A DNA stretch of 55,277 nt from a virus (IMGVR_UViG_3300024999_000132:1-55277); one strand, 5' to 3'. Shown: positions 27,697 through 53,376, numbered from the stretch's first letter. The notes: generated from the sequence alone by a model not told the origin. Translations and numbers: made by a program.

Positions 27697-27772
27697 GCCA
27701 CTGTAACTCAATTGGTAGAGTACCTGACTTGTAATCAGGATGTTGCGGATTCAAGTTCTGCCAGTGGCTCCA
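27697..27772 (+). tRNA. tRNA-Thr(TGT)
   Basis: GCCACTG/CAGTGGC acceptor, CCTGA-CTTGTAA-TCAGG anticodon arm, TTCAA T-loop, encoded CCA, 76 nt. Confidence 0.93.
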
Positions 27773-28139: not shown

Positions 28140-28835
28140 ATGGTGAATTTGGCGATTCATTGGCAGTTACCTTAACCAACCACAATAAGGTCAGAAATGG
28201 TTCCTGACGCACTCGAAAGAGTACCTGAGATGCAAGATACACCGACTTGCTATTGTGGTCTGATAATCATATTGATATGTCTAGTAGCATCTTAGTTGGC
28301 ATACTATAGAAGGTTGTAAGTCCAACAAAAATGTTTCCCTCACTCCCATGATTTTATTGGCGAAGGTTTGTAGTGGATAAGAGTGTAAAGAGAACCTTGT
28401 ACAAGTTAAGTATCGTTTGGGGAAATGATATTTAACAATATTATGAAGGAATTATAGAAGTGCAAACTTCCTCGAATTATTTATAATTCGGTTTCAAGTG
28501 TAATTCCTTCATAATAAAAATACAATATTGGCAGATGCCAAAGATAAAGAATAGGGAAGTGTAGCGAAATAAGTAATGATCAACCATGCTGTAAGGCATG
28601 TATGTGGGATGCTACATAGTCATCTTTAGATAAAGGGTTGGGATGACACAATGGCTTAATTGCCGACTAGATAATTTCCCCTCATCACTCATTGTTTGTT
28701 CTCTATGGCGTTAATCACAGTTTTATTTAAACTTAGTGATAGAGACAAATGGCATACTGCAATGATGTTGATGAATATAGAGTATGCCAAATTACAAATA
28801 AGGTGAATTTATAGGGGTAGATTCACCTTTATAAT
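28140..28835 (+). ncRNA. large structured ncRNA candidate (ROOL/GOLLD-like size and context)
   Basis: ORF-free, GC-elevated; many hairpins, a GAAA tetraloop and crossing long-range helices. Confidence 0.65.
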
Positions 28836-30629: not shown

Positions 30630-30704
30630 TGGCGAGTAGTTCAGTGGTAGAACGCCTGACTGTTAATCAGGATGTCGAAGTTTCGAATACTTCCTTACCA
30701 GCCA
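30630..30704 (+). tRNA. tRNA-Asn(GTT)
   Basis: CCTGA-CTGTTAA-TCAGG anticodon arm, GAAGT-TTCGAAT-ACTTC T-arm, G discriminator + CCA; one acceptor-stem mismatch. Confidence 0.88.
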
Positions 30705-30707
30705 AAC

Positions 30708-30781
30708 GCCTGACTAGTTTAATGATAAAACTTCTGTTTTGTAATCAGAGATTCACAGTTTGATTCTGTGGTTAGGCTCCA
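30708..30781 (+). tRNA. degenerate tRNA-Thr(TGT)
   Basis: GCCTGAC/GTTAGGC acceptor, TTTGTAA loop, CCA; D-loop lacks GG and T-loop is TTTGATT. Confidence 0.7.
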
Positions 30782-37157: not shown

Positions 37158-37193
37158 TGTGGATGGTAATGTGGATGGTAATGTGGATGGTAA
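37158..37193. repeat. 12-bp tandem repeat TGTGGATGGTAA x3
   Basis: read directly. Confidence 0.9.
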
Positions 37194-37388
37194 TAATGAT
37201 ATAAAGTTTTGTGGGTAAGTCGATAATCCAAGCAGAAATGTTTGGATTATTTGTTATTCACAGGAATAATGTGGATCAAAGTTGAGAGGTAATTTGGGAG
37301 TCATGACCCATCTCTACACGCCTCTCTTCTTTCTATTTTTAAGTTTTAGTGTAGAGAACAATAAATGTGTAGAAAGAAGGAATTGATT

Positions 37389-38516
37389 ATGTTGTTAACA
37401 AAAGAGGTGGAGATTAATTTAAAAGGTAGTAAACCTAAACACTATGAGAGTTTAGGATATGAAATACCTAAAAAGATTGGTGCAAAAGGTAAAGAAGTTT
37501 GTGATTATAGTAAGAGTATTTTAGTAAAAATCGAAGATTTGCCTCATAGTTCAGAAGTTATAATTAAACTACAATGTGACTACTGTGGAAAAGAAATCGA
37601 AAAACTATATAAGGATTATTATAAACAAACATTATCAGATGATAGTTCTCCGAATAAAAAGGATTGTTGCTACGAGTGTAGATATTTAAAGAAAAAAGAA
37701 AGTGATATGATAATACATGGAGTGGCACATACTACTCAATTAAAATCTACTCAAGACAAAATGAAGAAGTCAATGATGAATAAATTAGGAGTTGAATATG
37801 CTTCTCAAAGTCAAGAAGTAAAAGATAAAATTAAGTCAACTAATTTAGAAAGATATGGATTTGAAGTTTCCTCAAAATCTGAAATTGTAAAGGATAAATT
37901 TAAAAATACATGTCTTGATAGATATGGTGTTGATCATCCAGTTAAACTTAAAAGTATTCAACAAAAAATAATAGATACTTATAATTTTAAATATGGGTGC
38001 CATCCAATGCAAGTGGAAGAAATAAAAAATAAGGCAATTATTAAACAACGAATTGCATTTTATAATAACGAAACAGCACCTTGCTCAAGACAACAAAAAT
38101 ATATAAGTTTACTATTTAGAGGAAAATTAAATTATCCTGTAAACAAATGTAGTTTAGATATAGCTTTTCCAGAAGAAATGATTTATGTTGAGTATTTTGG
38201 AGGCGGCCATTATTTAGATGTTAAATTAGGAGAAATATCGTTAAATGATAAACAAAAGAATGATAGACGTAGATGGTATGCTTTAAAAAGCAAAGGTTGG
38301 AAGGAAATTAGGATACTATCAATAAAAGATTACTTACCACAAGATAATATTATTTTAGATTTACTTTTATATGCAAAAGATTACTTATCTACAGGTCATT
38401 CTTGGATTAAATTTGATATAGATAATTCTAAAATAATTACTTCGCAATATGAAATAAATGTTGATTATGGGATATTACGAAAAATTAAGCAAGCAGATTT
38501 AGAAGAAGTGAGTTAG
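37389..38516 (+). CDS. free-standing putative homing endonuclease (ERYG-type repeats + Vsr/DUF559-like nuclease)
   Basis: CDYC, repeated T(N/C)LxRYG units, LDIAF..IYVEY.GGGH, RR..LK..GWKEIRI; ATG 37389 after GAAGGA. Confidence 0.7.
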   Translation: MLLTKEVEINLKGSKPKHYESLGYEIPKKIGAKGKEVCDYSKSILVKIEDLPHSSEVIIKLQCDYCGKEIEKLYKDYYKQTLSDDSSPNKKDCCYECRYLKKKESDMIIHGVAHTTQLKSTQDKMKKSMMNKLGVEYASQSQEVKDKIKSTNLERYGFEVSSKSEIVKDKFKNTCLDRYGVDHPVKLKSIQQKIIDTYNFKYGCHPMQVEEIKNKAIIKQRIAFYNNETAPCSRQQKYISLLFRGKLNYPVNKCSLDIAFPEEMIYVEYFGGGHYLDVKLGEISLNDKQKNDRRRWYALKSKGWKEIRILSIKDYLPQDNIILDLLLYAKDYLSTGHSWIKFDIDNSKIITSQYEINVDYGILRKIKQADLEEVS

Positions 38517-38552
38517 TTAAATATTAACTTCTCCTTTATTCAATTAAAAGAG

Positions 38553-39710
38553 GTGAGACCTATACCTAGAGTTGGAAAAACAATAAAAGACCCAATAATA
38601 AAATCAAAAGATGAAGAAAGTAAAATAAAGTGTCCAATGTGTACAGATGAACCAAAAGCAAGATCAAATTTTTATAAAAGTTTATCTCCTTTGTATTTAG
38701 GGATAAACATTGATTATCCCAATGAATCGAGAATGGTATTTTGTAAGGAGTGCATATGTAATACTTATGACACCTATTATGGTATTTTAAAAGACATTAA
38801 AAAATCAATTCTTATAACTTGTATGAAATTTGATATTCCATTTAATGAAGGTGATTTTGATGGGGCAATGAAACAATGCACGAATAAACCAACAGCACAT
38901 CCATTAAAAATTTATATGACAAAATTAAATTCATTAGGTAATTTTAATAATACTTTAGCTGGTTTTGATCCTAAATTTTTATTTGATAAAGAAACTGGGA
39001 AAGACCTTATAACTAACGCTTTAGAATTAGAGGTAAAAGATTTAGATTATAATATTCAACTTACTGAAAAAGATTTACAAGTTAAAGATGATGTAATTAG
39101 GCTTATTGGATATGATCCATTTGCTGGATATTCTAATTTCGATCAGAAGTTTTTATACAATGAGTTAATTACTTATCTAGATGAGGATTTATTAGATGAT
39201 GCATTTAAGTTATCACAAATATTACAATTGGTTAATAACAATAATCAAATAAGAAAAATAGATTTAGTTATTGCTACTTTAAGCAATGATACCAAAACAT
39301 TAATTTCAAATCAAGGAGAAATAAAATCTCTGTCTTCCACAAAAAGTCAAATAGTTGGAAGTACAGATAAAATTGCTAAAGAAAACTCTATTTCTGTGAA
39401 AAATCGAGGAGATAAAAAAGCAGGAAAATCAACTTTGACTTATATGATGAAGAATTATAGAGAAATTGGTTTTGAAGATGCAGAAGTTGATTATTATGAT
39501 CAATTAAAAGGCATAGGAATGAAACATGCTGCTGACATTTCAAATAGTAGTATATTAGAACAACTTAGATTTGATGAAAATGATTTAGATAATATGATTA
39601 AAGAACAAAGAACGCTAATTCAAAGTTTACAAAGTGAACTTGATGAGTCATTGGAAGAAAATAGAAAATTAAGAATTAAAATAAAATCAGAAACTATTAC
39701 TGATAATTAA
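38553..39710 (+). CDS. putative terminase small subunit
   Basis: CPMC..FY..CKEC N-terminus, coiled-coil end, directly upstream of TerL. Confidence 0.55.
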   Translation: MRPIPRVGKTIKDPIIKSKDEESKIKCPMCTDEPKARSNFYKSLSPLYLGINIDYPNESRMVFCKECICNTYDTYYGILKDIKKSILITCMKFDIPFNEGDFDGAMKQCTNKPTAHPLKIYMTKLNSLGNFNNTLAGFDPKFLFDKETGKDLITNALELEVKDLDYNIQLTEKDLQVKDDVIRLIGYDPFAGYSNFDQKFLYNELITYLDEDLLDDAFKLSQILQLVNNNNQIRKIDLVIATLSNDTKTLISNQGEIKSLSSTKSQIVGSTDKIAKENSISVKNRGDKKAGKSTLTYMMKNYREIGFEDAEVDYYDQLKGIGMKHAADISNSSILEQLRFDENDLDNMIKEQRTLIQSLQSELDESLEENRKLRIKIKSETITDN

Positions 39711-39727
39711 GGTGGTGAATATTTAAA

Positions 39728-41552
39728 ATGACAAATCTCAATCGTGATAAAAAATTACTAACAACAAGAAAAATAGAAATGTATAATGCAAACTCTAAGA
39801 TTATAAAGTTTTGGAGACGTAATCCAATTATTGCGGCTGAAGATTTGTTCGGTTAGTATAAGATTATTGGATTTTCAAAAATGGGTTCTTCAAATGAGTT
39901 GGAATACTCCGTATGTGTTGTGGTGTGAAAGTCGAAACGCAGGTAAAAGTTTTGAAGCAGCAGTATTAATGGGGTTAAAATCAATATTATATGAAGATCA
40001 AGATATTTACATAGTAAGCAATGTCGGAAGTCAAGCACAAGAATGTTTCACAAAAATTGAAGATATAGCTTTAGATAGAATTAATTCAATTAAATCGTTA
40101 AAAGATATATTTAGAAATGAAATAGTGCAAAGCCCTTCATGCAAGACTGGATTTTCACATAATCCTGTATCATTTCATGTTTCAACATATAATAATAGTG
40201 AAATATTTACACTTAATGGTAATCCGGATAATAACAGATCGAAAAGGGCAACGTGCGTATTTTTTGATGAGGCGGGGTATTCTGGTGAAGAACTGTTAGA
40301 AGCAATGGCAGCATTTGCAACACAAGATAGTGATTTTGCAACTTCTGTACAAAAAGACTTTGATGTTAAAGCGTCAAGAAGAAACGTACCTACACAATTA
40401 ATTTATGCATCTTCAGCATCTTCAGTTGATACTACATTCTTTAGAAAATATAAGGACTTTGCAATGAAAATGATGATGGGAAATAGAGATTATTTTTGTT
40501 GCGATATTCCTTGTAATATTCCTATTAATCCAATGATGGACGGGATAGAGCATCCTCCACTTTTACAAAAATCTAAAGTAGAAACAGCAATGACATCTAA
40601 TAGGGATAAAGCATTAAGAGAATACTATAATAAATTCGATTCGGATGGTGGAGAAACACAAATATATAAACGTGCTATGATAACAAGAAATAGCATATTC
40701 TCTTTACCTAAATTTTCTAATGAAACTGGAAAAGAAAAATTCGCAATTGCTTTTGACCCTGCAAGAGCAGGAGATGGTTCGATTGTTTCCGTAATGCAAA
40801 TTCTAAAAGATGATAACATTGGTTATTATGGAAAGATTGTAAATTGTACAAATATGATTGATTTAGCCAGTAAAAGAAAAATAAAAATGAAAACTCCAGA
40901 TCAGATCAAGTTTTTAAAACAAACAATATTAGATTACAATGGAAATAATCCTGACTATGAAAATATAGAAGCATTTTTGATCGACGCAGGAGCAGGTGGA
41001 GCTGGTGTTTCAGCATATGCTGATAATTTATTAGATGATTGGTTTGATGATAAAGGTATTAAGCATAAAGGATTTATTGATAAGGTTTCTGATATTTACG
41101 AAACGGAAAAATATAATTATCCTAATGCATGGGAAAAATTAGCATTAATATCTCCAAATAAATATAGAAATAAAATGTGTGAAGAATTATTAGAACTATT
41201 ACAATTAGATTTAATAAAATTTCCATATGAATATTCTGGTAAAGGATTTGTAACATTGGCATCTGATGATGGAAGTGAAAGAAATTTAAAAAACTATAAT
41301 CTTTCATTTGAAGAGGAATTAGCATTAATTAATATTGATATAATGAAAACTGAAACTATTAATATCCATAGAGTTGCTAATGCTGAAAAAACAAGTGTAA
41401 GATATATATTACCAAAAGATAAGGAAAGAATTATGTATGATGATAAATTTTATACATTGTTGCTTTTAGCTCATTATTTATATGAGAAAAGAAGAGGAGA
41501 TATAATCAACACGGATGATTCAGATCATGATTTCGTATTCTCTTATTCATAA
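39728..41552 (+). CDS. terL: terminase large subunit, frame interrupted by 4 extra nt at ~39854-39857
   Basis: SRNAGKS Walker A, FFDEAG Walker B, AFDPA and YDD nuclease motifs; N-terminal 42 codons (ATG 39728, FWRRNP..EDLFG) lie in another frame. Confidence 0.88.
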
Positions 41553-41592
41553 CACAAAAACAAATCCCTAAAGAAAGGAGGTATAACTTCTC

Positions 41593-43230
41593 TTGACAAA
41601 AAAAATAATTTCTCAAACAGAAACAAACACTCAAACTATCCCCTCTGATCCATTCCCTCAATTCTCAACATCGAATGAAATTGAATTAAATTCTTTATCC
41701 TATAATTCATATTCATTTTCAACAGGAAGATTAGATACTGATAATATCCCAATGAGCGATTTAAAACAATATGTCAAATATCCGATGATATATAATGAAA
41801 TATTGAGAACTATATCTGAGCAAGCTTATAATTCTGATGGACTGTACTCAAATATTTTGGAATATATGGTTGCTATACCTACTTTAGCAAATATTACAAC
41901 TATGAGAAACAACACTCCTGAATTGAAAGAGAAAAAGAAAAAGTTTAATCTTATATTAAAATTACTAAATCACGATAGGTCAACTAGAGACATATTAAGA
42001 AATTTATATATTTATGGCACATACATAGGTACGCTTAGAGAAACTTTTGCAAGTAATAAAAATATAGATACTGGTTCGATTACAGTAGAATCAATTGATA
42101 GAATTGAAGGACTATCATTAGATGATAATTTTATGATCCAACCTTTAGACTTAGATTATTGTAAAATAATTGGATTTCAAAATAATATATCCATTGCTGC
42201 TTTTGATATGATGTATTTTGATCAATTTAAATTTGGTGGACTAGTAAATGAAATAAAAAATTTCCCTAAAGAGTTTATGAAAGCATATATGTCGTATAAG
42301 AAAGATGCAAGTAAAAGATGGTTTATATTAGATTATAGAAAAACCATTGCATTAAAATCTAAATCAAAAGAGGATGAACCATATGGTAGACCTCTTGGAT
42401 TATCAGCTTTTAAAAATATGAAATCAAGTAGTGACTATGATGATAGTCAATATCAATTAGTTAGTGAATTAGCTAGTAGTATCTATTATTTGATCTTGCC
42501 TTCTGGGGAAAAGCAAGGATCTTGCTCATTAAATTCAACTCAGCAAAAAGAAGTTATTGAGGCTTTTAAAAACGCAGTAAAAGTTAATACAAGTGGAGAA
42601 AACGCCAAAATCTCAACCCTCAGTTTAGCACCTGGGACAGAAATAAGTAGGTTAAGTAAAGATTCATCTCTAGTAAAAGATACTTTAAGTGATGAAAACA
42701 TGAAGAAAATCAGTACAAGTTTAGGTTTTGCTAGTAGTGCTTTAAATGCTGAATCTAGTGGTGGAAGTTCATACGCAAATTTGGCTGTAAATTTAGATTT
42801 AGTATCATCCCAAGTATTTCAGTCTGTAAATGAGATAGCAAGAGAATATACAAGAGTAATTAATGAATTATTAGGCATAAAACCAAAGGATTATATTGAT
42901 ATCAATTATTTACCTATTTCTTGGTTAAATAAGGATGATATGTTTGAGAAAGTGTCTCAATTATATACATTAATAGGGGGTAGCAGAAGATATCTAGTGG
43001 CTTGTGCAGGAATCGATGTTAATAGTTACTTTAGTTGTCTAGATGAAGAAATTGAAGAAGGGTATGAAGAGAAGTACCCTGTTCATTTATCTGCATTCAA
43101 TTCAAATAGTGGAGATATAAAAGACAATGACGGTGGAAGACCATCAATGAAAACTAAGGATTTATCGCAAAATGGAATGGTCACTCGCAATAATAATAGC
43201 AATAATCAAGTAAAACCATCCACTAAATAA
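41593..43230 (+). CDS. portal protein
   Basis: 545 aa directly after TerL; YGRP, ISTSLG..SYAN portal-like pattern. Confidence 0.75.
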   Translation: MTKKIISQTETNTQTIPSDPFPQFSTSNEIELNSLSYNSYSFSTGRLDTDNIPMSDLKQYVKYPMIYNEILRTISEQAYNSDGLYSNILEYMVAIPTLANITTMRNNTPELKEKKKKFNLILKLLNHDRSTRDILRNLYIYGTYIGTLRETFASNKNIDTGSITVESIDRIEGLSLDDNFMIQPLDLDYCKIIGFQNNISIAAFDMMYFDQFKFGGLVNEIKNFPKEFMKAYMSYKKDASKRWFILDYRKTIALKSKSKEDEPYGRPLGLSAFKNMKSSSDYDDSQYQLVSELASSIYYLILPSGEKQGSCSLNSTQQKEVIEAFKNAVKVNTSGENAKISTLSLAPGTEISRLSKDSSLVKDTLSDENMKKISTSLGFASSALNAESSGGSSYANLAVNLDLVSSQVFQSVNEIAREYTRVINELLGIKPKDYIDINYLPISWLNKDDMFEKVSQLYTLIGGSRRYLVACAGIDVNSYFSCLDEEIEEGYEEKYPVHLSAFNSNSGDIKDNDGGRPSMKTKDLSQNGMVTRNNNSNNQVKPSTK

Positions 43231-43350
43231 TTGATAATTTTAATAAAAGATAGGTGAGGAGTAATTACCCTTACTGAGAAGATGAGTTCCTTTCACTCAT
43301 CTTCTTTTATTTGTTTAAATTTAAGAAAGGAAGATTCTCATTAGAAAGGA

Positions 43351-44277
43351 ATGATAAAAATGGATAAAAACTTTATAGAAATTACTAATTTTTGCAGTAG
43401 TAGAATAATTGATATAAGCATAAGAGAATGTGGAATTTATGCATTATATAATATTGAAAATGGAAAGATTTATGTTGGAAGTAGTATAGACATGTACTCT
43501 AGAACAAGAAGGCATCTTTCCGATTTAAAAAATGGAAAACATTATAATAGATATTTAATTAGAGCATATAAAAAATATGGGAAGTCAATAATCCCCGTTG
43601 TTTTAGAAATTGTAAAGAATAGAGAAAATCTAATTGAACGTGAACAATATTGGATTGATCATTTTGAAAGCTATAATAATAAAGTTGGATACAATATCTG
43701 TATTATTGCGGATAGATTAACCGGCATTTTTAGAACAGACGAGGAAAAGAAACATTTAAGTATTATTAATACTGGCAGAAAACACACTGAAGAAACAAAG
43801 TTAAAAATGAGTAAATCTAGAATAGGAATTCAATATTCAGAAGAAACATTAAAAAGGATGAGCGAGTCTCATATTGGCAAAAATTTATCTGAAGAAGCAA
43901 AAGAAAAGTTAAGAAATAATATCAATATAATTCCAATATATCAATATTCGTTAGATGGTATGTTTATACAAGAATGGAAGAGTGCTGCTGAGGTGGTTAG
44001 AGTAAAAGGATTTGACTCGTCTGCTATAACAAAATGTTGCAGAGGAAAATTACATAAACATAAGGGATATATTTGGAAATATGAATATTTTGAAAAACTA
44101 GAAATAAAGTATAAAAAAATTATACAGAAAACCCTAGACAATGAAATAATAAAAATATGGGATTCTATGAGTGATGTTTGTAAAACTTTAGCATATAGTT
44201 CTAGTGCTATATGCCAATGTTGTCTGGGTCATTGGGAAAAATATAAAAATTATAAATGGGAATATATGTTTTGTTAA
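43351..44277 (+). CDS. GIY-YIG homing endonuclease with NUMOD3/NUMOD1 repeats
   Basis: GIY..IYVGSS..R..H, EREQYWID, GYN, HTEETKLKMS. Confidence 0.92.
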   Translation: MIKMDKNFIEITNFCSSRIIDISIRECGIYALYNIENGKIYVGSSIDMYSRTRRHLSDLKNGKHYNRYLIRAYKKYGKSIIPVVLEIVKNRENLIEREQYWIDHFESYNNKVGYNICIIADRLTGIFRTDEEKKHLSIINTGRKHTEETKLKMSKSRIGIQYSEETLKRMSESHIGKNLSEEAKEKLRNNINIIPIYQYSLDGMFIQEWKSAAEVVRVKGFDSSAITKCCRGKLHKHKGYIWKYEYFEKLEIKYKKIIQKTLDNEIIKIWDSMSDVCKTLAYSSSAICQCCLGHWEKYKNYKWEYMFC

Positions 44278-44324
44278 ACAATTGTTTTATTTAATAATAA
44301 ACCTAAATAAAAAGTTGAAAGGAG

Positions 44325-45986
44325 GTGATATATTTTGTGAATAAGCCAATTATAAACTCTGATAATACATACATAGAAATTTGTGAAATGTCCGAAGAAG
44401 ATGTTGCTGGAAGAGTAAAAATAAAAATGTCTAGTCATTTTATCCATCCAGAAGTAGGTCAATGGAATAAAAATGGGATTACATGGTTAGAACAATATAC
44501 TCAAGACAATATTAAATCTGCTATAGGAATGAATTATGTAGTATCTTGGGCAGATGAAGAAAATCAAATTCCTTCAGGACATGGAGAAATGAGTTTTGAT
44601 GAAGATGGAAATGTCAAATTTGAAGGAGTAGTTGTTGGAAGCGTATTAGATGCTTACATTTGTGATGTAGAAATTGATGGTCAAATAAAAAAGGTAATGA
44701 TGACCGAAGGGTATATTAATTCACAGCGATATAGTCTTTTTGTAAAATGGCTAAAGGAAGAAATTGAAAATGGGAAAGTTTATGGTTCAATTGAGATAAA
44801 TGGCAAAGGAAAAGCTAAAAATATTGTGTATCTTGATGGAAATAAGAATATTGATGGAACTTTAAAAATGGGCCGTTGTCCCACAGTTTTTGATTTTTCT
44901 GGATTAGCAATTTTATCTAATCTAGAAAATCAAGCAGATGATGATTCAATTGTTTTTGAGGTTAATTCTAAACAGGATGACCTTGATATAAATAATAATC
45001 TAACATTAGAAACAGGAAAGGAGGACAATATATTGGGAGAAAATAATAATATGAAATTAATTTCTAAAGGAAAAACAATAGAAATTAATAATTTGACTTC
45101 ATGGGAAATAGAAAAATTATTAGAAAAAGCTTTTAGGATTGCAATAGGAGATATTTTTGATTCAGAAGAACATGGTTATTATGTAGATAAATTATATCCT
45201 ATTAATGCAGAGTTTATTATTAGAAAATGGAGTCGTAATGAGGTTTCTACTTTCTATAAATCTTCTTATTCAGTGGATGATAATAATAATGTAACTTTAG
45301 GAGATATATATGAAGTTGAAGAAGCATGGACTCCAGTTAATAATGAAAAACCTATAGAAATGAATAATCAAGCGAAGGAGGAAAATAAAAAAATGGATGA
45401 AAAAATCGTATTAGAACTTAATCAAAAAATCGAAGACAAAATTAATGAAATTAATACTCTTACAAATTCCCTAGAACAAAAAGGAGTAGAAATTAATTCA
45501 TTAACTAAATCTTTAGAGGAAAAACAAGCTGAAATCAATAGTTTAACTGAAAAAGCAACAGAACTTGATAGTAAGGTAATTGAACTAAACACCAGTATTG
45601 TAGAGGTTAATAAATTACTTGAATCTGAAAAAGCAGAAAAAGAATCTCTTACAGTAGAAGTAAATTCTTTTAGAGAAGAAAAAATTAAAGCGGATTCAGA
45701 AGCAAAAATTACGGAAGTCAATGCTTATTTTGAAACAGAAATTACTAAGAATGGTTTTGAAGAAAGCGAAGTAAATTCTCTTAAATCTTTTGTTGAAGCT
45801 ATTGATTTGGAAGGACTAAAAAAAGCAGAAGCAGAATTATGTGCAAAGAAATTCAAAGAAATGATTGCTCAAAAAGATGTAGATTCTGATGTTGAAACAA
45901 ATACTGCAAATAATGTAATGTTTATTTCTATTAAAGAAAAAGAAATGAAGAAAGTCCCTGGTAGTATCCCATCTTTCTTTAACTAA
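44325..45986 (+). CDS. prohead protease/scaffold-like protein
   Basis: between portal and capsid; N-terminal GHG..GSIE domain, long C-terminal coiled coil. Confidence 0.7.
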   Translation: MIYFVNKPIINSDNTYIEICEMSEEDVAGRVKIKMSSHFIHPEVGQWNKNGITWLEQYTQDNIKSAIGMNYVVSWADEENQIPSGHGEMSFDEDGNVKFEGVVVGSVLDAYICDVEIDGQIKKVMMTEGYINSQRYSLFVKWLKEEIENGKVYGSIEINGKGKAKNIVYLDGNKNIDGTLKMGRCPTVFDFSGLAILSNLENQADDDSIVFEVNSKQDDLDINNNLTLETGKEDNILGENNNMKLISKGKTIEINNLTSWEIEKLLEKAFRIAIGDIFDSEEHGYYVDKLYPINAEFIIRKWSRNEVSTFYKSSYSVDDNNNVTLGDIYEVEEAWTPVNNEKPIEMNNQAKEENKKMDEKIVLELNQKIEDKINEINTLTNSLEQKGVEINSLTKSLEEKQAEINSLTEKATELDSKVIELNTSIVEVNKLLESEKAEKESLTVEVNSFREEKIKADSEAKITEVNAYFETEITKNGFEESEVNSLKSFVEAIDLEGLKKAEAELCAKKFKEMIAQKDVDSDVETNTANNVMFISIKEKEMKKVPGSIPSFFN

Positions 45987-46092
45987 GTTTTAGAAAGTAA
46001 AGATAAATATATAATTAATGTTAGTAATAAGTAATGGTTAAATAGTAATGGTTAATTAATAACAAAAATAAAAAGAAATGAGGTAATTAATA

Positions 46093-46614
46093 ATGAGTTT
46101 ATTTAAGTTTCATGATTCAAATTTTCTTAATGTATCCAATAAACCTAATGTAAAGGCAATTGCAGATACATATAATGGTTATCAGTTCAATATTACATCT
46201 GATGTTCAGGTATTAGTTCCAGATTTAGCTACAGCAAAATTGGGTGATATTTATGTTATGTGTAATATTATTGATAAGCCTGAAATCATCAATACAGATT
46301 CTTATAAAGTTGTTGCTGATGAGTATATTCGTGCATTCAGACTTAAAGACATGGTAGGACTTCAACTTGATATGTCTGCTGATTTGCTTACTGATGCTTT
46401 TGCAGATGTTGCTGTTGGTAACTTTGTCATTGGACGTTCTGTAGCAGATGCTACAAATGTAATGAAATGGACTAAAACTGCTGATGTTTCTGCATATGAA
46501 ATTTATCTTAAAGTAATCAAGAAAACTACTTTTGGTGCGTTTACTATTGATGCAGGTGGTGGAACTGTTGCTGGTGGTTATGTTGTAGAAGTAATGGCAA
46601 ACGATAATCTGTAA
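46093..46614 (+). CDS. virion structural protein (capsid decoration-like)
   Basis: 173 aa before MCP, codon usage typical of highly expressed genes. Confidence 0.6.
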   Translation: MSLFKFHDSNFLNVSNKPNVKAIADTYNGYQFNITSDVQVLVPDLATAKLGDIYVMCNIIDKPEIINTDSYKVVADEYIRAFRLKDMVGLQLDMSADLLTDAFADVAVGNFVIGRSVADATNVMKWTKTADVSAYEIYLKVIKKTTFGAFTIDAGGGTVAGGYVVEVMANDNL

Positions 46615-46730
46615 GTTATGAGATTGTAGGTTATTGTATGTGTTGTTTGTAAGTAATATATAATATTTTTGGATTAATGTCAAATAGTAAGTTAATAAAT
46701 AAATAATAAGAAAGAAAAGAGGTATTAATA

Positions 46731-48230
46731 ATGAGTTTTGGAATAGATTTTACAAAATTACAAGAGAATGCAGAACAAGTTGAGATTAATAAAATTGTAA
46801 AGAATAAGTTGTCAACTATTAATCCTGCTCGTCCGAATGAAGATGTGGAGATTTTTACTAATATTGTTTATGGTAAAGATGTATCTAAATATGGTAAAAA
46901 AGTTGATACAGTAATGGATAAGATTAAATTATTGGCTACTGCTGCCAATGATGGTGATTATAGAGCTAAAGCTGAATTGAATGCTATTCGGACAGTTACT
47001 ATTCAACAACCTTTGGAAAAGAGATTGGCAATTAATAATGCTATGGGCCAAGTTACAAAAGTTGGTTATAACGAGGAAATGAGATATGAAGTATACCAAT
47101 TACAGGGAGATAAGTCAAGAGTTCAAGCTTCGTCTGGTTCTTTTGTATTTCCTACTGTAAAGAAAAGAACTGGTATTATGGAAACTAAAACTTCTACAGG
47201 TGGAGTTATTTTTGACGCAAGAGAATTATTGTCGGGGGCGACAGATGGTTTTGCACGAGCCAACGAACAAGTAATGACTGATATGACTAACCAAATGGTT
47301 CTTTCTCACATTAATGCTTTGAGAAGTGCCATTACTGCCGCTACTACATTAAAGAACTATGCTGAAGGGATTACGAAGACAAATGTCGAAAATACGAGAA
47401 AATTAGCAAGACGTTTCGGCTCATCTGTAACAATTATGGGAGATTACAGTGCAGTAAATAAACTTGGTGATCTTGCTAATTTCAGTGTTGTTGCGGCAGG
47501 AACGGAATTTAGATTCCCTGAGTCCGTGATGGAAGAAGTAATGAAAACTGGTCTTATTAAAGTTTATAAAGGGAGTATTGTAGTAGAATTGCCAAATTCT
47601 TACAATATGATTGATCTTAATACTGCTGGTGATTTTTATGCTCCACAACTTCCTACAACTGATTTGTGGTTTTTACCACAAGGAGCATCCAATGCCTTGC
47701 AAATTGGCCTTCGCGGAGGTATGACCACAATGACAACGACTGATATTAATTTAAGGGTAACTTTAGCCCCGTATGTACAGAAATGTGCATAGGACATTTC
47801 CTTAATTGCAGGTAATTCCTAAAGCTCTCATGCCACAACATAAGGATGAAATACGCCTAAGTGTGACGGAACGAAAGTAGAAAAAAGTTGAGAGATGGTA
47901 TAAGGTTAAATCCTAAGTGCTGTTACAATGGATGTTCATTGCAGGTAAGACTCGAATAGAGTAAACTTCAACGACTATGGCTGAAATGCCAGTACACTCA
48001 AGCGAGTGGAAAATGGAAGCCCTTAACAGGTAATGCTGAAGGTGAAGAAATAGTCTATTCTCATATGAAAATATGAGCAGTTATAAACGGTATAGAAGTT
48101 GCGATTCTATATGAATATAAATTTATAAAAAGCCGAAGTTACAAGATATGACTGGGAATTCGGAAATTACGTGGCTGTGGAGAATTTACCAGCAATCGGG
48201 ATGATATATGATGCTGCATTAGCCGAGTAA
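46731..48230 (+). CDS. major capsid protein in two exons (46731-47757 + 48133-48230, 374 aa spliced)
   Basis: position and size; exon 2 encodes AEVTRYDWEFGNYVAVENLPAIGMIYDAALAE*, a plausible capsid C-terminus. Confidence 0.8.
47758..48132 (+). ncRNA. group I intron without ORF, 375 nt
   Basis: P-like AATTGCAGGTAATTCCTAAAG; R CTTCAACGACTAT and S AAGAAATAGTCT give P7 (47973-78 with 48050-55); P1 GGGT..GCCC; P10 AACTT/AAGTT. Confidence 0.88.
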
Positions 48231-48373
48231 TATATATTTTAAGTAAATTTTATAAGAGATAGGTATTAATTAAGATTGCAAGCTTAATTGATTACTGATA
48301 AGAGTGGTTTTCCTAGACCACTCTTCTTTTATTTTATAAAAAATTAGGGAGTGATTCTAAGGAGGAATTAAAA

Positions 48374-49726
48374 TTGGCAACAAAACTTACATATCAAATC
48401 ATTAAAAACTATATAAATAGCGAAGAAACAGGAAATGGTTGTAGTCTAAAAACTACAGAAGAAGAATTTAATCAAGCGAAGATAGATCAAAACAAAAATA
48501 GTTCACATGTAGTAATATTTATGAAATGTAAATGTGGAAATAATATTGAGAAATCTTATGATAATTTTAAATACTCTAAGAAGCAATGTAATAAATGCTC
48601 TGGATTAGAAAGAAGGACTAATGAAGAAGTTAAATATTTCATAGAAATAGAATCTCAATCAAATTGCAAGTTATTATCAGAATATACTATTGCAACTGAT
48701 TTATTAGATTTAGAATGTGGTTGTGGAAGGCCATTTAAGAAAAGTTGGAATAAGTTTTATAGTTGTAATCAAAGAACATGTAATGAGTGTAGCAATAAAT
48801 TATCAGGAGAAAAACATAAAATCCCTTATAAAGATATAAAGCATTATATAGAGATCGAAAGTAATAGTGGTTGTGAGTTAATAACAACTGAAGATGAATA
48901 TATAAACACACATTTAAATATTAATATCAAATGTAAATGTGGAAATCCTTTTACCACAGCATTTCATCAGTTTAAAGGCGAATTATATAAAAAACAACAT
49001 TGTGATGAATGTGGAAACAAGGCAATAGGGTTAAAATTAAGTAAGCCATACATAGAAGTTAAAAATACTATAGATAACACTGGTTGTGAATTATTAACTA
49101 CTATTGAAAACTATGAAAATTCTACTTCTCTCTTGGAAATAAAATGCAATTGTGGAAAACCATTTAAGACAACTTACAGCATATTTAATAGAGGAGAAAA
49201 AGGGAAAAATAAATGTGATGACTGTGCAAAAGAAATAAGTAATACAAAAAGGATGAATACTCTTTATAAAAATGGTACTGCTCCTTGTAGTAGTCAACAA
49301 AGATATGTTCATAGTATTCTTGGAGGAGATTTGAATTATCCAGTAAAAACAGCTTCTCTAGATATAGCTTTCCTAGATGAAAAAATATATTTAGAGTGTG
49401 ATTTTAGTGGTCATTGGATGGCGGTAACATTAAAGAATATGACACAGGAGCAATTTGATCGAAGAGAATTAAGAAGATGGTATGCTCTTAATAAATCTAA
49501 TTGGAAAGAAATCCGTATAATCTCAACCAAAGACCTAATCCCATCAGACCAAAAACTTCTAGAAATCCTATCTTATGCACGTACATACCTAAATCAAAAT
49601 CATCATTATATTAAATTCGACATTGACAATTCAAAAATAATTAATTCTCAAGGTGAATTTGATTATGATTATGGTGAATTAAGAAAAATCAAACCAACAG
49701 ACATCCAAATTCAAGAAGCAATCTAA
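48374..49726 (+). CDS. free-standing putative endonuclease (CxCG..CxxC repeats + Vsr-like nuclease)
   Basis: four CxCG/CxxC repeats; C-terminus paralogous to the 37389..38516 product. Confidence 0.75.
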   Translation: MATKLTYQIIKNYINSEETGNGCSLKTTEEEFNQAKIDQNKNSSHVVIFMKCKCGNNIEKSYDNFKYSKKQCNKCSGLERRTNEEVKYFIEIESQSNCKLLSEYTIATDLLDLECGCGRPFKKSWNKFYSCNQRTCNECSNKLSGEKHKIPYKDIKHYIEIESNSGCELITTEDEYINTHLNINIKCKCGNPFTTAFHQFKGELYKKQHCDECGNKAIGLKLSKPYIEVKNTIDNTGCELLTTIENYENSTSLLEIKCNCGKPFKTTYSIFNRGEKGKNKCDDCAKEISNTKRMNTLYKNGTAPCSSQQRYVHSILGGDLNYPVKTASLDIAFLDEKIYLECDFSGHWMAVTLKNMTQEQFDRRELRRWYALNKSNWKEIRIISTKDLIPSDQKLLEILSYARTYLNQNHHYIKFDIDNSKIINSQGEFDYDYGELRKIKPTDIQIQEAI

Positions 49727-49786
49727 AAACTAAATAATCTAAACAAAAATAATAAAGGGTTAAAATAATGGAGGGAGTAAACTAAA

Positions 49787-50275
49787 ATGGCAATTGATAT
49801 GAATAGTAGGTCAAAGGTACAAAACTTATGTGATTGGAATGTTTCATGGGAGAGGTTTTCCATGGACGGAGATGAATTCATAAAAGCAAATCAGACAGTA
49901 TATATTCCAAATATGGAGATTGAAACACAGGTGCAAAACAACAATCTCTTCTTTTCCGGAAATGACAATATTGGATCGCACGCGAGAGTTTATATTCACA
50001 ATCCAGAAATGAGAGAACACCTTGGTTTCGATAACAAAGAAGAAAAAAGAACTCAACTAATTCTAAGTGATGAAAAATGTAAAGAAATATTTGATTATAA
50101 AACATTTAGCACTTTCAAAAAACATGTAAATGAAAATATTATTACAAATCAAGAAAAATCAAAAATAGTTAATTATGCTAAGAAAATGAAGATAAATGAT
50201 TATGACAAGATTCAGTATTTAACCGAGTACACAGGTCTTTCATTCAAAACTGACAAAACAGATGATAAAGAATAA
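49787..50275 (+). CDS. head-module hypothetical protein
   Basis: 162 aa, GGAG RBS, post-capsid position. Confidence 0.7.
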   Translation: MAIDMNSRSKVQNLCDWNVSWERFSMDGDEFIKANQTVYIPNMEIETQVQNNNLFFSGNDNIGSHARVYIHNPEMREHLGFDNKEEKRTQLILSDEKCKEIFDYKTFSTFKKHVNENIITNQEKSKIVNYAKKMKINDYDKIQYLTEYTGLSFKTDKTDDKE

Positions 50276-50304
50276 ATATAATAAATCATTGGAGGTGATA
50301 TAGT

Positions 50305-50988
50305 TTGGGAACTTTACTCCAAAAAATATATGATAAATTTTTCATAAAGGTATCTGATGTGGATTTCACTTACAAACAAGATTTAGTTTTTGAGTTTTTT
50401 GAAACTGCCATAGGGTACAGTTACAAAACTACACCACATGATTTAAGCTATACTTTGTATTCTGATAATGCAGTTTTGATAGTTTATGATGTAATAGAAA
50501 ATAGTGGTGATATAACTATTCAAATCAACTCTGATACATATACAATTGCTTTATTAAATACTGATACAAAATTGCAAATAGCAACAAAAATAAAGTCTGC
50601 TATTGAATTAAATTATACAGTAGTATTAGATGATATTGAAAATCCAATGTTAACAATCACTAAATCACTTACAGATAATATCACATTAACATTTACTGAT
50701 ACAGATAATACTAATTTAAATCTAATCATAAGTAAAACATATGATGGAATAATGCTTAATGACTTAGATATAGATGAGATTGAATTAATTTCATTAAATA
50801 TGAAAAAAGCATATTTAGATTATTTATTAAAACCATTATCTCGATTAAAAAAGCAAATTGGAACTAAAGATTTTAATCGTTTAGAAAGTAAAGTAGAAGA
50901 ATTAAAAGTTTATTCATTAATGTTAAGTAATTTAAAGGAAGAGATTAAAGATTTTAGACAAGAATTTAATTCTTATTCAAATTCTTAA
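50305..50988 (+). CDS. putative head-tail adaptor
   Basis: MGTLLQKIYDKF start, LDIDEIELI..M, GTKDF; position. Confidence 0.55.
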   Translation: MGTLLQKIYDKFFIKVSDVDFTYKQDLVFEFFETAIGYSYKTTPHDLSYTLYSDNAVLIVYDVIENSGDITIQINSDTYTIALLNTDTKLQIATKIKSAIELNYTVVLDDIENPMLTITKSLTDNITLTFTDTDNTNLNLIISKTYDGIMLNDLDIDEIELISLNMKKAYLDYLLKPLSRLKKQIGTKDFNRLESKVEELKVYSLMLSNLKEEIKDFRQEFNSYSNS

Positions 50989-51003
50989 TTAAGTTGGTGG
51001 AAA

Positions 51004-51240
51004 ATGAATAATAATATCAATAATATCAATAATAAGAAAATTCTTATTAAAACTCCAAATTGCGAAATGAGCTTAGAAGACTTATGTAAGAAAGAATATT
51101 TAAAAATAAACAATCTTATGCATATGATTGAGAAACAATTTGATATTTCTTTGCATGATTATCCTGAACTTAGAGGAGAAATCTTAAATATAAGCAATTT
51201 TATTAAGAGGATACCTTATTTACAGAGGGAGATTATGTAA
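51004..51240 (+). CDS. hypothetical protein
   Basis: 78 aa in the structural operon. Confidence 0.6.
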   Translation: MNNNINNINNKKILIKTPNCEMSLEDLCKKEYLKINNLMHMIEKQFDISLHDYPELRGEILNISNFIKRIPYLQREIM

Positions 51241-51302
51241 TTAAATAATATAAGTCATAATGATAAAAATCATAACAAATCAAGAAAAAGGAGGAAAGAA
51301 AA

Positions 51303-52109
51303 ATGGGATATAGTGATTCTGAATTTAGTAGAATATCTCAAAGTGAAGAAGCAACTATAGATGGCGTAACTGCTGGAACAGTATCAGCTTCAAAAGCAAT
51401 TGTTGCAGGGGCAAATAAAAATGTTGATGTGTTGGCAATTGCAGATTTAAAATTGGGAGCAGGAGCAGGAACTTCTGTAACTGCAACTGCTACACAAATT
51501 AATTCTTTGATTAATTTTCCTGGAACTATGTCAACAGCAGTAATTGATTTTAATGCGACTGGTGAACCTGCAATGAAAGTTACTATTAATGATGTTGATT
51601 ATCAAGAAGCAGATGTAGCTGTAGTAACAACTGGTGTCTGGACTAATGGTGCAAGTGCCGCAAACTCTGCTACAAGTTTGGTTGCTGCAATTAATGGTGA
51701 CACAAGAGCAACAGTTCCTTTTACAGCATTTTTATCTGCTGATGGTGCAAGTGTCGTACTAGCATGGGATGCAATTGGGACTGTTGGGAATGTTACTATT
51801 TCTACAACAAGTGCAGCGAATTGTACTGTGGAAAATTCAGTTGGGGGAACTGCCTCTGGTATAAAACAAATGGTTGTTGTAGATCGCATTGTTACTGCAC
51901 AAGATGTATTAGCACTTGAAACTAATATACCTTTGCCATTTGTGCCAACTAAAATATTAGTTAATTATTTTGATGCAGATGGAATTTTGCTTGGTACGAT
52001 TACAGATAAGGCATCCATCCAAGCAAATCCAAATCGTGTTCGTGTACTACAAGCTGGTGCAACTCATTTGGCTGCTACTAATGTAATTCAGGTAATGGCT
52101 GTAGAATAG
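51303..52109 (+). CDS. Ala/Thr/Val-rich virion structural protein (fibre/decoration-like)
   Basis: 268 aa, strong RBS, composition. Confidence 0.6.
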   Translation: MGYSDSEFSRISQSEEATIDGVTAGTVSASKAIVAGANKNVDVLAIADLKLGAGAGTSVTATATQINSLINFPGTMSTAVIDFNATGEPAMKVTINDVDYQEADVAVVTTGVWTNGASAANSATSLVAAINGDTRATVPFTAFLSADGASVVLAWDAIGTVGNVTISTTSAANCTVENSVGGTASGIKQMVVVDRIVTAQDVLALETNIPLPFVPTKILVNYFDADGILLGTITDKASIQANPNRVRVLQAGATHLAATNVIQVMAVE

Positions 52110-52218
52110 TAGAATAATGGTTAATTATTAGGGTTCGAAACTTAATAATTGTAATTAAAAGACATGTGCCTATACACATGTCTTTTCCCATTGGATAGTC
52201 TCTAATATAGGAAGGAGA

Positions 52219-53376
52219 TTGATTAAAATTAGTATTAAACTTACTTATATAGAAGTCAAAAAATATATTGAGAATTTAGGATATAAATTAATTAGCAAAG
52301 AATACATTAATAACAGAGAGAAATTAATTATTAAAGACAAATATGGTTATTATTACACAATTAAACTAAATAATTTAAAAGCAGGATATTTTCCATCTAT
52401 TGTAGAAAAAAGAAATCCTTATGCAATTCAAAATATAAAGTTATGGTGTAAAATTAATCAAAAGCCTTTTGAATTAATAAGTGAAATATATGAAGAAAAA
52501 GACAAAAAATTACAATGGAAATGTCTTAAAGAAGAATGTGGTGAAATATTTAAATCTAGTTGGAATGGAATTAGAAATAATTACGGTTGTGGATTTTGCG
52601 ATGGTAAACAGGTGGGTTTATCAAATTGTCTTGCAACTAAAAATCCTGAGTTAGCATTTGAATGGCATCCCACTAAGAATGGTGATCTGACTCCTTTTGA
52701 TGTTACACCTGGAAGTGATAAAAAGGTATGGTGGATATGCGAAAAAGGACACGAATGGCAAGCAGTAATTGCTAGTAGAAATCATAATGGAAGATATTGT
52801 CCTTATTGCACTCATAATTTACCGTCTGAAGATTATAATCTACTAATAATAAATCCTAAACTTTGTGAAGAGTGGAATTATAATAGAAATGATAAATTTC
52901 CACACGAATATTGCCCAAATAGCAATAAAAAAGCTTGGTGGAAGTGCTATAAAGGTAATCATGAATGGGAAGCAACAATTAATAGTAGGAATAATGGTAA
53001 TGGTTGTCCAGAATGCAATGAATCAAAAGGTGAAAAACAATTGGATTACATATTGTCCAAATATAATTTTCCTCATAGTTCTCAATATACTTTTGATGAT
53101 TTAAGAGGTATTGGCGGTGGTCTATTAAAATTTGATGTTCCTATATTTTGGGATGAAGAAAAAACTCAATTAAGACTGCTGATTGAATATGATGGTAGAC
53201 AACATTATGAATGGATTGAAGGTTGGATTACTAAAGATGGGTTTGAAACATTACAAATTCATGATGAGCGAAAAAATGTATATTGTGAAAATAATAATAT
53301 AAAATTAATTAGAATACCATATTGGCATTTTAATAATATTGAAGAAATATTAAATAGAGAGTTAAATATTATTTAA
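52219..53376 (+). CDS. free-standing putative endonuclease (DUF4379-like Zn ribbons + PD-(D/E)xK domain)
   Basis: EWHPTKNG..KVWWIC..GHEW..CPYC repeats; SKGE, LKFD, LIEYDGRQH, LIRIPYW. Confidence 0.8.
   Translation: MIKISIKLTYIEVKKYIENLGYKLISKEYINNREKLIIKDKYGYYYTIKLNNLKAGYFPSIVEKRNPYAIQNIKLWCKINQKPFELISEIYEEKDKKLQWKCLKEECGEIFKSSWNGIRNNYGCGFCDGKQVGLSNCLATKNPELAFEWHPTKNGDLTPFDVTPGSDKKVWWICEKGHEWQAVIASRNHNGRYCPYCTHNLPSEDYNLLIINPKLCEEWNYNRNDKFPHEYCPNSNKKAWWKCYKGNHEWEATINSRNNGNGCPECNESKGEKQLDYILSKYNFPHSSQYTFDDLRGIGGGLLKFDVPIFWDEEKTQLRLLIEYDGRQHYEWIEGWITKDGFETLQIHDERKNVYCENNNIKLIRIPYWHFNNIEEILNRELNII

Follow-up and report, generated by a model that had tools for sequence, protein, structure and literature searches.

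The IMG/VR virus record IMGVR_UViG_3300024999_000132 (55,277 bases, analysed whole and hereafter called the window) carries four free-standing genes resembling homing endonucleases, designated a to d, and each is preceded by a leader that belongs, by its predicted fold, to a single RNA family. The fold is a three-way junction made of an outer helix (P0), a 5' hairpin (P1), and a second hairpin (P2) whose loop is complementary to one or two short boxes at or near the gene's own Shine-Dalgarno (SD) sequence. Among related viral sequences the complementarity is conserved through compensatory change, the leader is associated with endonuclease genes, and it arrives with the inserted gene. Our preferred reading, to which we assign a probability of about 0.62 and which leans on analogy with known silenced phage genes, is that loop-SD pairing would mask the ribosome-binding site and keep the nuclease scarce, making this a cis-acting pseudoknot leader on a portable cassette.

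Minimum-energy folding gives every one of the four leaders a 5' hairpin and a strong second stem, and in the window the leader is confined to the four endonuclease genes. An alignment of 23 b-type leaders has fixed loops and variable stems: little or no variation is seen in CCTTTC of the P2 loop, in GAAAGG of the two boxes, or in the flanks AGATAGGT and TGAYAAG. RNAalifold predicts 21 pairs for this alignment, 7 of them changed on both sides and all 7 located in P1 and P2, and it also recovers the outer helix P0 (AAAAGA with UCUUUU). In other types P0 is AGGGA/UCCCU, AUGG/CCAU, AGAGAAC/GUUCUCU, or AGUCAAUGGC/GCCAUUGACU; since P0 remains paired while varying from type to type, the U-rich stretch that follows P2 in leaders b and c is primarily the 3' strand of P0. 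The original prediction, made from this one stretch of DNA, had taken stem and U-tract together as a terminator, a unit that gives way here to the conserved P0/P1/P2 junction. It had also placed a U-tract after each stem, which holds for a, b, and c and fails for d, where the tail is UUUUCCCAUU.

A covariance model built from 25 relatives (R1) was run over the window with filters off, listing matches up to E = 10. Leaders b (102.4 bits), c (59.2 bits), and d (24.3 bits, E 0.0056) are the top three of the 42 matches, bearing out the proposed kinship of the four leaders, with leader a reached only at rank 6 (17.8 bits, E 0.27), which is chance level. The check had been conceived as a model built from the four leaders themselves; the model from relatives recovered b, c, and d and left a among the chance matches. 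R1 is too specific for the b type and misses most other types, and a second model, R2, scores leader d at 122.1 bits and yields 8 matches in 93 sources. The comparison with Rfam that had been suggested was also run: at the gathering threshold of Rfam 15 the leaders match no family, and only the skipping-rope RNA and three transfer RNAs (tRNAs) appear in the window. Sub-threshold matches over the leaders are to L20_leader (21 bits vs 58.7), PreQ1 (15.2 vs 39), and, on the minus strand, mir-202 (26.4 vs 51).

Complementarity between loop and box was first judged within the window by setting each loop against every other stretch of equal length in the 55 kb and recording the contiguous Watson-Crick match. 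For leader a, the 9-nt match is equalled or exceeded in 0 of 1052 stretches; for leader b, the 8-nt match in 6 of 1164; and for leader d, the 6-nt match in 41 of 2187. Dinucleotide shuffles of the short downstream stretch, a very conservative test for stretches so short and purine-rich, give 0.006 for a, 0.043 for b, 0.12 for d, and 0.83 for c. Judged on the window alone, then, leaders a and b make a good case for complementarity and leaders c and d a weak one; comparative data raise the whole set of four leaders well above chance.

That comparison drew on the leaders that precede relatives of genes a, c, and d, together with matches in whole related records. The loops and boxes differ in sequence and remain complementary, as in UUCCGA with UCGGAA (locus L041), CUCCG with CGGAG, present twice (L078), CCUCAA with UUGAGG (L094), UCCAAA with UUUGGA (L097), and CCUCCCAUA with UAUGGGAGG (L102). 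In L079, CUCGUCC matches GGACGAG at the SD, and a second part of the loop, CCUGCACAC, matches GUGUGCGGG; in L144 the loop UCCAACCU matches two boxes, AGGUUGGA and AGGUUGG. The junction strand of leader a, UCUCUACAC, matches GUGUAGAGA, and its closest relative, L089, has an identical layout in different letters (UUCUCCG and UCCGUA with CGGAGAA and UACGGA). An automatic descriptor (best-energy P0/P1/P2, at least 4 contiguous pairs each, cut-off -12 kcal/mol) was applied to 151 non-redundant intergenic regions from 128 sequences (761 kb); it replaced a most-stable-hairpin rule that had picked the wrong hairpin for leader a and for L078, L079, L090, L097, and L100. The descriptor returned 53 junctions with 32 distinct P2 loops, including some non-leaders that dilute the signal. 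The longest Watson-Crick run between a loop, with 2 nt on either side, and the 60 nt downstream averages 5.50 nt for a loop and its own downstream sequence vs 4.37 nt for the others, a value reached in 0 of 100,000 permutations (p ~1e-5); with G-U pairs allowed the averages are 6.56 vs 5.74 (p ~2e-5).

The d type provides a further comparison. In five d-type leaders, the proposed structure including the pseudoknot is 95.3% paired, vs 80.7 ± 1.7% after shuffling (0/500), and the loop/box helix in the alignment is 100% paired, with 2 of its 6 pairs changed on both sides. We then scanned the viral collection with the d-type frame, leaving the two central loop letters free, which returned 75 stretches, 55 of them unique; 23 of the 55 have a P2 stem of at least 8 of 10 pairs. 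An exactly complementary hexamer follows the loop by 21-30 nt and immediately precedes the SD in 22 of these 23 leaders, and the remaining one has a G-U version. Five loop/box variants are represented (CCAAUA/UAUUGG, CCACUA/UAGUGG, CCAGUA/UACUGG, CCGAUA/UAUCGG, and CCUAUA/UAUAGG). The 32 stemless matches, which are chance occurrences in coding DNA, served as a control and have the hexamer in 1 case, and permuting the free letters among the 23 leaders gives a mean of 5.8 matches and a maximum of 14 in 20,000 trials (p ~5e-5). The original prediction had seen natural covariation in the four window leaders and had named the absence of complementarity from homologous leaders as one outcome that would speak against it; complementarity is present in the homologs and persists through differing sequences. 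On this comparative evidence, the loop/box pairing is selected.

The leader travels with the inserted gene. A portal-protein scan identified 76 related loci (44-91% identity). In 12 of them there is no insert, and the next backbone gene begins 10-46 nt downstream with no hairpin and no leader; most of the others hold an inserted open reading frame (ORF) of 190-580 aa, and at 22 distinct inserted junctions the leader is nearly identical to b. The edges of the insert fall just outside the leader and just past the endonuclease ORF. Because endonuclease-free junctions lack the leader, we conclude that it arrives with the inserted gene. ORFs behind the b-type leader are from different families, and those named by Pfam include GIY-YIG and DUF4379/HNH-type nucleases. 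In PHROGs, 13 of the 14 leader-associated ORFs tested match homing or HNH endonucleases, vs 0 of the 2 leaderless inserted ORFs tested against the same families. The expectation that nucleases of unrelated families share this leader is thereby borne out, and in whole related records all 4 independent matches tested (L131, L133, L135, and L141) lie upstream of ORFs resembling homing endonuclease genes. The portal/next-gene junction (L002-L077) is itself an insertion hotspot, with at least four kinds of nuclease ORF behind one leader type; leaderless ORFs of unassigned function also occupy it (L002:5648-6370, L044:5592-6305, and a ~90-aa ORF in L017, L039, and L042).

The individual leaders vary around the common plan (Table 1). 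All strings quoted for them in the original prediction are present where it had placed them, as are the motif AGATAGGT..TACTGA.AAGA common to b and c and the small hairpins whose loops it quoted. Leader a is a variant with a GC-rich P0, a P1 loop as in some b-type leaders, and a 9-nt junction strand in place of P2; the duplex of this strand with box1 is -14.4 kcal/mol, box2 extends into the SD, and part of the U/C-rich tract (37327-35) could also pair with 37370-78. In leader b, box2 is the SD itself, 9 nt before the ATG, and the loop forms a duplex of -11.9 kcal/mol with 43343-53. The b-type loop may resemble the 3' end of 16S ribosomal RNA in low-GC Gram-positive bacteria. For leader c, the originally proposed partner TAGGGA turned out weaker than the SD region at 48355-67 (best duplex -8.6 kcal/mol). 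A mini-ORF from a GTG after box1 in leader c was considered and rejected, for lack of conservation in L030. The box of d and its relatives adjoins GGAAGGAG and lies in the loop of a UCUCU/GGAGA hairpin that holds the SD, so that the predicted contact is loop to loop. This local helix is paired in 96% of cells in the five d-type sequences, with no double change; the local helix of leader c is weak, and the b type, whose SD matches the distant P2 loop, has none.

Table 1. Positions of the four leaders, their parts, and the associated genes in the window.
Feature	Position	Strand	Details
Rha-like gene	upstream of leader a, 35-55 kb region	+	
Leader a core	37284-37326	+	P0 GAGAGGT 37284-90 with GCCTCTC 37320-26
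Leader a P1	37295-37310	+	loop (37299-37306) contains palindrome TCATGA
Leader a junction strand	37311-19	+	TCTCTACAC, enclosed by P0, in place of P2
Leader a downstream part	37327-37391	+	U/C-rich tract 37327-40; SD GAAGGA 37376-81; ATG 37389
Leader a boxes	37349-57; 37367-73	+	box1 GTGTAGAGA 37349-57; box2 GTGTAGA 37367-73 (near-copy span 37367-75)
Endonuclease gene a	37389-38516	+	375 aa from ATG 37389; Pfam DUF7487; phrog_12131 homing endonuclease, E 1.4e-40
Terminase-like gene	39831-41552	+	
Portal gene	41593-43230	+	
Leader b core	43244-43309	+	P0 43244-50 with 43303-09
Leader b P1	43253-75	+	loop palindrome TAATTA 43262-67
Leader b P2	43276-43306	+	loop TCCTTTC 43288-94
Leader b boxes	43325-43362	+	box1 GAAAGGA 43325-31; box2 GAAAGGA 43344-50; ATG 43360
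Endonuclease gene b	43360-44277	+	GIY-YIG with NUMOD
Leader c core	48253-48331	+	P0 48253-59 with 48325-31
Leader c P1	48265-92	+	loop palindrome TTGCAA 48276-81
Leader c P2	48300-25	+	loop around TTCCTA 48310-15
Leader c boxes	48345-48376	+	TAGGGA 48345-50; SD region TTCTAAGGAGGAA 48355-67; TTG start 48374
Endonuclease gene c	48374-49726	+	phrog_559 HNH endonuclease, E 2.6e-27
Leader d core	52116-52192	+	P0 52116-20 with 52188-92
Leader d P1	52122-51	+	loop palindrome TTCGAA 52134-39
Leader d P2	52157-86	+	loop CCTATA 52169-74
Leader d SD hairpin	52199-52221	+	TCTCT 52199-203 with GGAGA 52214-18; box TATAGG 52206-11 in loop; TTG start 52219
Endonuclease gene d	52219-53376	+	treble-clef DUF4379; phrog_559

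The window has a G+C content of 28.7% and a CheckV completeness estimate of 28%; complete related records are ~230 kb, which makes it part of a giant phage. A megablast search of 18 kb against 50,697 phage records found no annotated close phage, returning a single 54-bp match. The 35-55 kb region encodes late genes on the + strand, among them the terminase-like and portal genes and further structural genes, with the four endonuclease-like genes interspersed. As originally claimed, all four leader-bearing ORFs are homing-endonuclease-like by Pfam or PHROGs. Genes c and d start with TTG where the relatives L129 and L101 use ATG, and the weak start may add to low expression; an ATT at 52228 was rejected as the start of gene d, since relatives carry ATG at the position of the TTG at 52219.

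Several other features of the window were recorded. Between the Rha-like gene and leader a, within 37165-37251 on the + strand, GGATGGTAATGT is repeated in tandem about three times, and there is a separate terminator-like hairpin of 13 pairs (37222-37251). A candidate ORF-less group I intron at ~47757-48131 (+; RF00028, 49.2 bits vs gathering 50, E 2.6e-11) interrupts a late gene (46731-47756 plus 48132-48229) that is continuous in intron-less relatives (...TDINLRAEVTRFD...ALAE). L041 carries an intron at the identical site, and in the window leader c and gene c follow directly after exon 2. A resembling arrangement occurs in cyanophages, where a free-standing endonuclease lies beside an intron-bearing psbA. 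The skipping-rope RNA (RF02924) is at 28180-28258 (+; 69.4 bits vs gathering 36.7), and the tRNA genes are at 27697-27769, 30630-30701, and 30708-30778.

The proposed cassette would consist of a ~100-120 nt leader RNA followed by the endonuclease ORF. On transcripts entering from upstream late genes, the three-way junction would fold first, and the P2 loop, or the junction strand in a, would then pair with a box overlapping or abutting the SD, forming a long-range pseudoknot, often with a second copy of the box 20-30 nt upstream, as is seen in many leaders. In the d type, where a small hairpin already contains the SD, the P2 loop would kiss the loop of that hairpin. Such pairing would hide the ribosome-binding site, keep 30S subunits off, and leave little nuclease; P0/P2 of the b, c, and a types, together with the U-rich tail, would probably also stop part of the incoming transcription. 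We infer repression of translation by pairing, action in cis, and the occurrence of termination; that expression is limited, as the original prediction also proposed, is suggested by analogy with T4. Its notion of a two-state switch found no echo, since nothing points to two regulated states, and an antiterminator role for the box is ruled out by its position downstream of the stem.

A number of observations weigh against masking of the SD, or against parts of that mechanism. A simple terminator scan lists b (43276-43306) and c (48300-48325) as its top two and does not list a or d. Termination is plausible for b, c, and a and not plausible for the d type, whose relatives lack a proper U-tract and have a C-rich tail in 23 of 23 cases, mostly CCCAUU; moreover, within a late operon, a terminator heading an insert would exert polarity on the essential gene that follows. 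No internal leader promoter was identified in a sigma-70-type scan (110 sites vs 124.6 expected), a type that may not be the phage's own. The match of leader c is not above chance in the window (491 of 1439 stretches), that of d is only modestly so, and by duplex energy neither the c nor the d loop favours its own leader's target above those of the other three. In a (9 vs 7 nt), L144 (8 vs 7), L102, and L069, the loop is better matched by the upstream box1, a box distinct from the SD, so that it may be held at a decoy while the SD stays accessible. The association with nucleases is also imperfect: one leader-associated ORF (L030:3569) has no nuclease match, endonuclease relatives in L098, L086, L105, and L101 (at position 1198) lack the element, and the L144 leader is followed by only a 10-codon ORF. 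The L144 element (1501-1660) is itself complete, with a 10-pair P0, its loop, and two matching boxes of 8 and 7 nt, and it is probably the remnant of a decayed endonuclease cassette.

The P1 loops have a symmetry of their own. Each of the four window leaders has a different palindrome in this loop (Table 1), and among 23 d-type leaders (among loci L145-L219) a central palindromic hexamer is present in 20 and a tetramer in all 23. Their variants are TTGCAA (11), TAGCTA (4), TTCGAA (3), TGCGCA (1), TCGCGA (1), GGCC (2), and GCGC (1). A palindromic hexamer is found in 20 of the 36 distinct P1 loops of the mixed set vs 1 of 34 P2 loops, against a background of 2.0% per position. Because a palindromic loop cannot pair with itself internally, and because the symmetry is kept through variation, these loops point to pairing between two leader copies, and they hint at a kissing interaction. 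One could go further and picture the leader as a self-addressed module that homing-endonuclease cassettes carry between sites and phages, with P2 loop and boxes as a private code and with P1 loops that kiss, for example between a terminated fragment and a full-length mRNA, so that silencing would be cooperative, dependent on copy number, and partly in trans. We hold this extension to be doubtful; if true, it would mean that uncultured phages from many habitats share a new class of RNA regulator borne by mobile elements.

Related to this extension is the idea that silencing works in trans altogether, with terminated leaders accumulating as small RNAs whose P2 loops are antisense to the SD boxes of the cognate mRNA and whose P1 loops aid docking. 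The terminator-like b and c leaders, the common occurrence of two target boxes per mRNA, the four different loop/box sequences and four different P1 palindromes in the window, and the palindromic d-type P1 loops would all suit such small RNAs, but the d-type tails are poor terminators, duplex energy does not set the targets of the c and d loops apart, and loop diversity is equally expected from drift with compensation in cis; we judge action in trans unlikely. Pairing might instead activate translation, the loop binding box1 or the SD-hairpin loop and so opening a competing SD-hiding structure (the U/C-tract with the SD in a, UCUCU/GGAGA in d), or box1 might be a decoy that keeps the anti-SD loop off the SD. 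The longer complement at box1 in the four leaders named above and the existence of local SD-masking helices independent of the loop agree with activation. However, the d type and many others have a single box that touches the SD, box2 of the b type is the SD itself, and a kissing contact with the loop of the SD hairpin should make that hairpin more stable rather than open it, so that activation seems to us decidedly unlikely.

Two further explanations dispense with regulation by pairing. The conserved element might act as DNA, whether as a homology arm, a protein operator for cassette exchange, or a cruciform, with the RNA pairings as by-products; nearly identical b-type leader DNA does precede unrelated nuclease ORFs at one hotspot, and P1 is a near-perfect DNA palindrome. 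Yet G-U, a pair that forms only in RNA of the + strand, is tolerated in the helices and in the kissing pair, the stems change by compensation while loops and boxes co-vary, and differing P1 palindromes (seven in the d type) are hard to square with one DNA-binding protein, which makes a DNA-level role very improbable. Alternatively, the stems could be ordinary intrinsic terminators of the upstream genes, their pyrimidine-rich loops matching purine-rich ribosome sites by chance. This would account for the terminator-like b and c, for the chance-level match of c in the window, and for the weak dinucleotide shuffles of b and d, but it is contradicted by the absence of the element where no endonuclease is inserted, by both permutation tests, and by the 22 of 23 exact matches across five loop variants, and we give it almost no credence. 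A cis-acting leader that masks the ribosome site remains the reading we favour. We regard the leader as a real, conserved, covarying RNA of homing-endonuclease cassettes on the strength of these comparisons; its structure is well supported, and its function we infer.

No selfish genes are commoner in large phages than those of homing endonucleases, and their harmlessness in essential late operons has been explained only for a few T4 cases, each by an ad hoc hairpin. Here one conserved, portable RNA fold would serve unrelated nuclease families, with a pairing between loop and ribosome site that nature has tried through many compensatory changes. The leader is thus a small, clean, modular candidate for a reusable translational operator and a marker for endonuclease cassettes in metagenomes, decayed ones included, and its self-complementary P1 loops point to RNA-RNA contacts between leaders. 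Full-text searches of the literature turned up T4 reviews, but no paper describing a junction leader common to endonuclease genes or the pairing of a loop with their SD.

Several known systems share parts of this design. Intrinsic terminators resemble leaders b and c in having a stable GC-containing stem followed by a U-rich run; in the leaders, however, P0 takes the U-run as its 3' strand, a conserved loop matches the SD as its complement, d-type members have no U-tract, and the element is absent without an insert. In the fold-back inhibition of IS10 and IS50, the 5' edge of a mobile element likewise pairs with the ribosome site of its own gene and so guards against outside transcription, but there a simple long-range helix acts on a transposase and the element's own promoter lies downstream of the 5' arm, whereas here a loop-presenting junction precedes a homing endonuclease and no such promoter was identified. 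The type I toxin mRNAs hok and AapA1 also keep a harmful gene inert through upstream SD-complementary sequence and more than one box; they differ in their dedicated antisense RNA and processing steps. The P1 loops are like the kissing loops of the retroviral dimerisation initiation site, an apical loop of ~8 nt with a central hexamer that varies and remains self-complementary. The packaging context of the retroviral site is absent for the phage loop, whose dimerisation is putative.

Closer in setting is the IMG/VR catalogue of structured RNAs, which describes candidates within 25 bp upstream of phage genes, some before HNH, GIY-YIG, and NUMOD genes (PMC10690425). Its text leaves them unnamed and describes neither a mechanism nor loop/SD pairing; our comparison is with those descriptions, and the leader family may be among the entries, uninterpreted there. 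The nearest functional parallel is the T4 family, in which, as described in PMC2988022, endonuclease genes are silenced translationally by local hairpins, which hide the ribosome-binding site in the transcripts of the early and middle phases, and translatable RNA comes from a late promoter within the hairpin; the T-even cases are I-TevI, I-TevII, I-TevIII, segB, and Aeh1 mobE (PMC2988022). Both there and, as we propose, here, a cis leader RNA covers the SD of a phage endonuclease gene within an operon transcribed from upstream, and the likeness extends to the local SD hairpin of the d type. In those described cases the late promoter lies inside the hairpin, whereas none was identified within our leaders, and masking is local, whereas here a distant hairpin loop would reach the SD as a pseudoknot or kissing loop, often with two boxes. 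Where each T-even gene has a single local hairpin of its own idiosyncratic kind, the leaders described here share a conserved, portable three-way junction across unrelated nuclease families.

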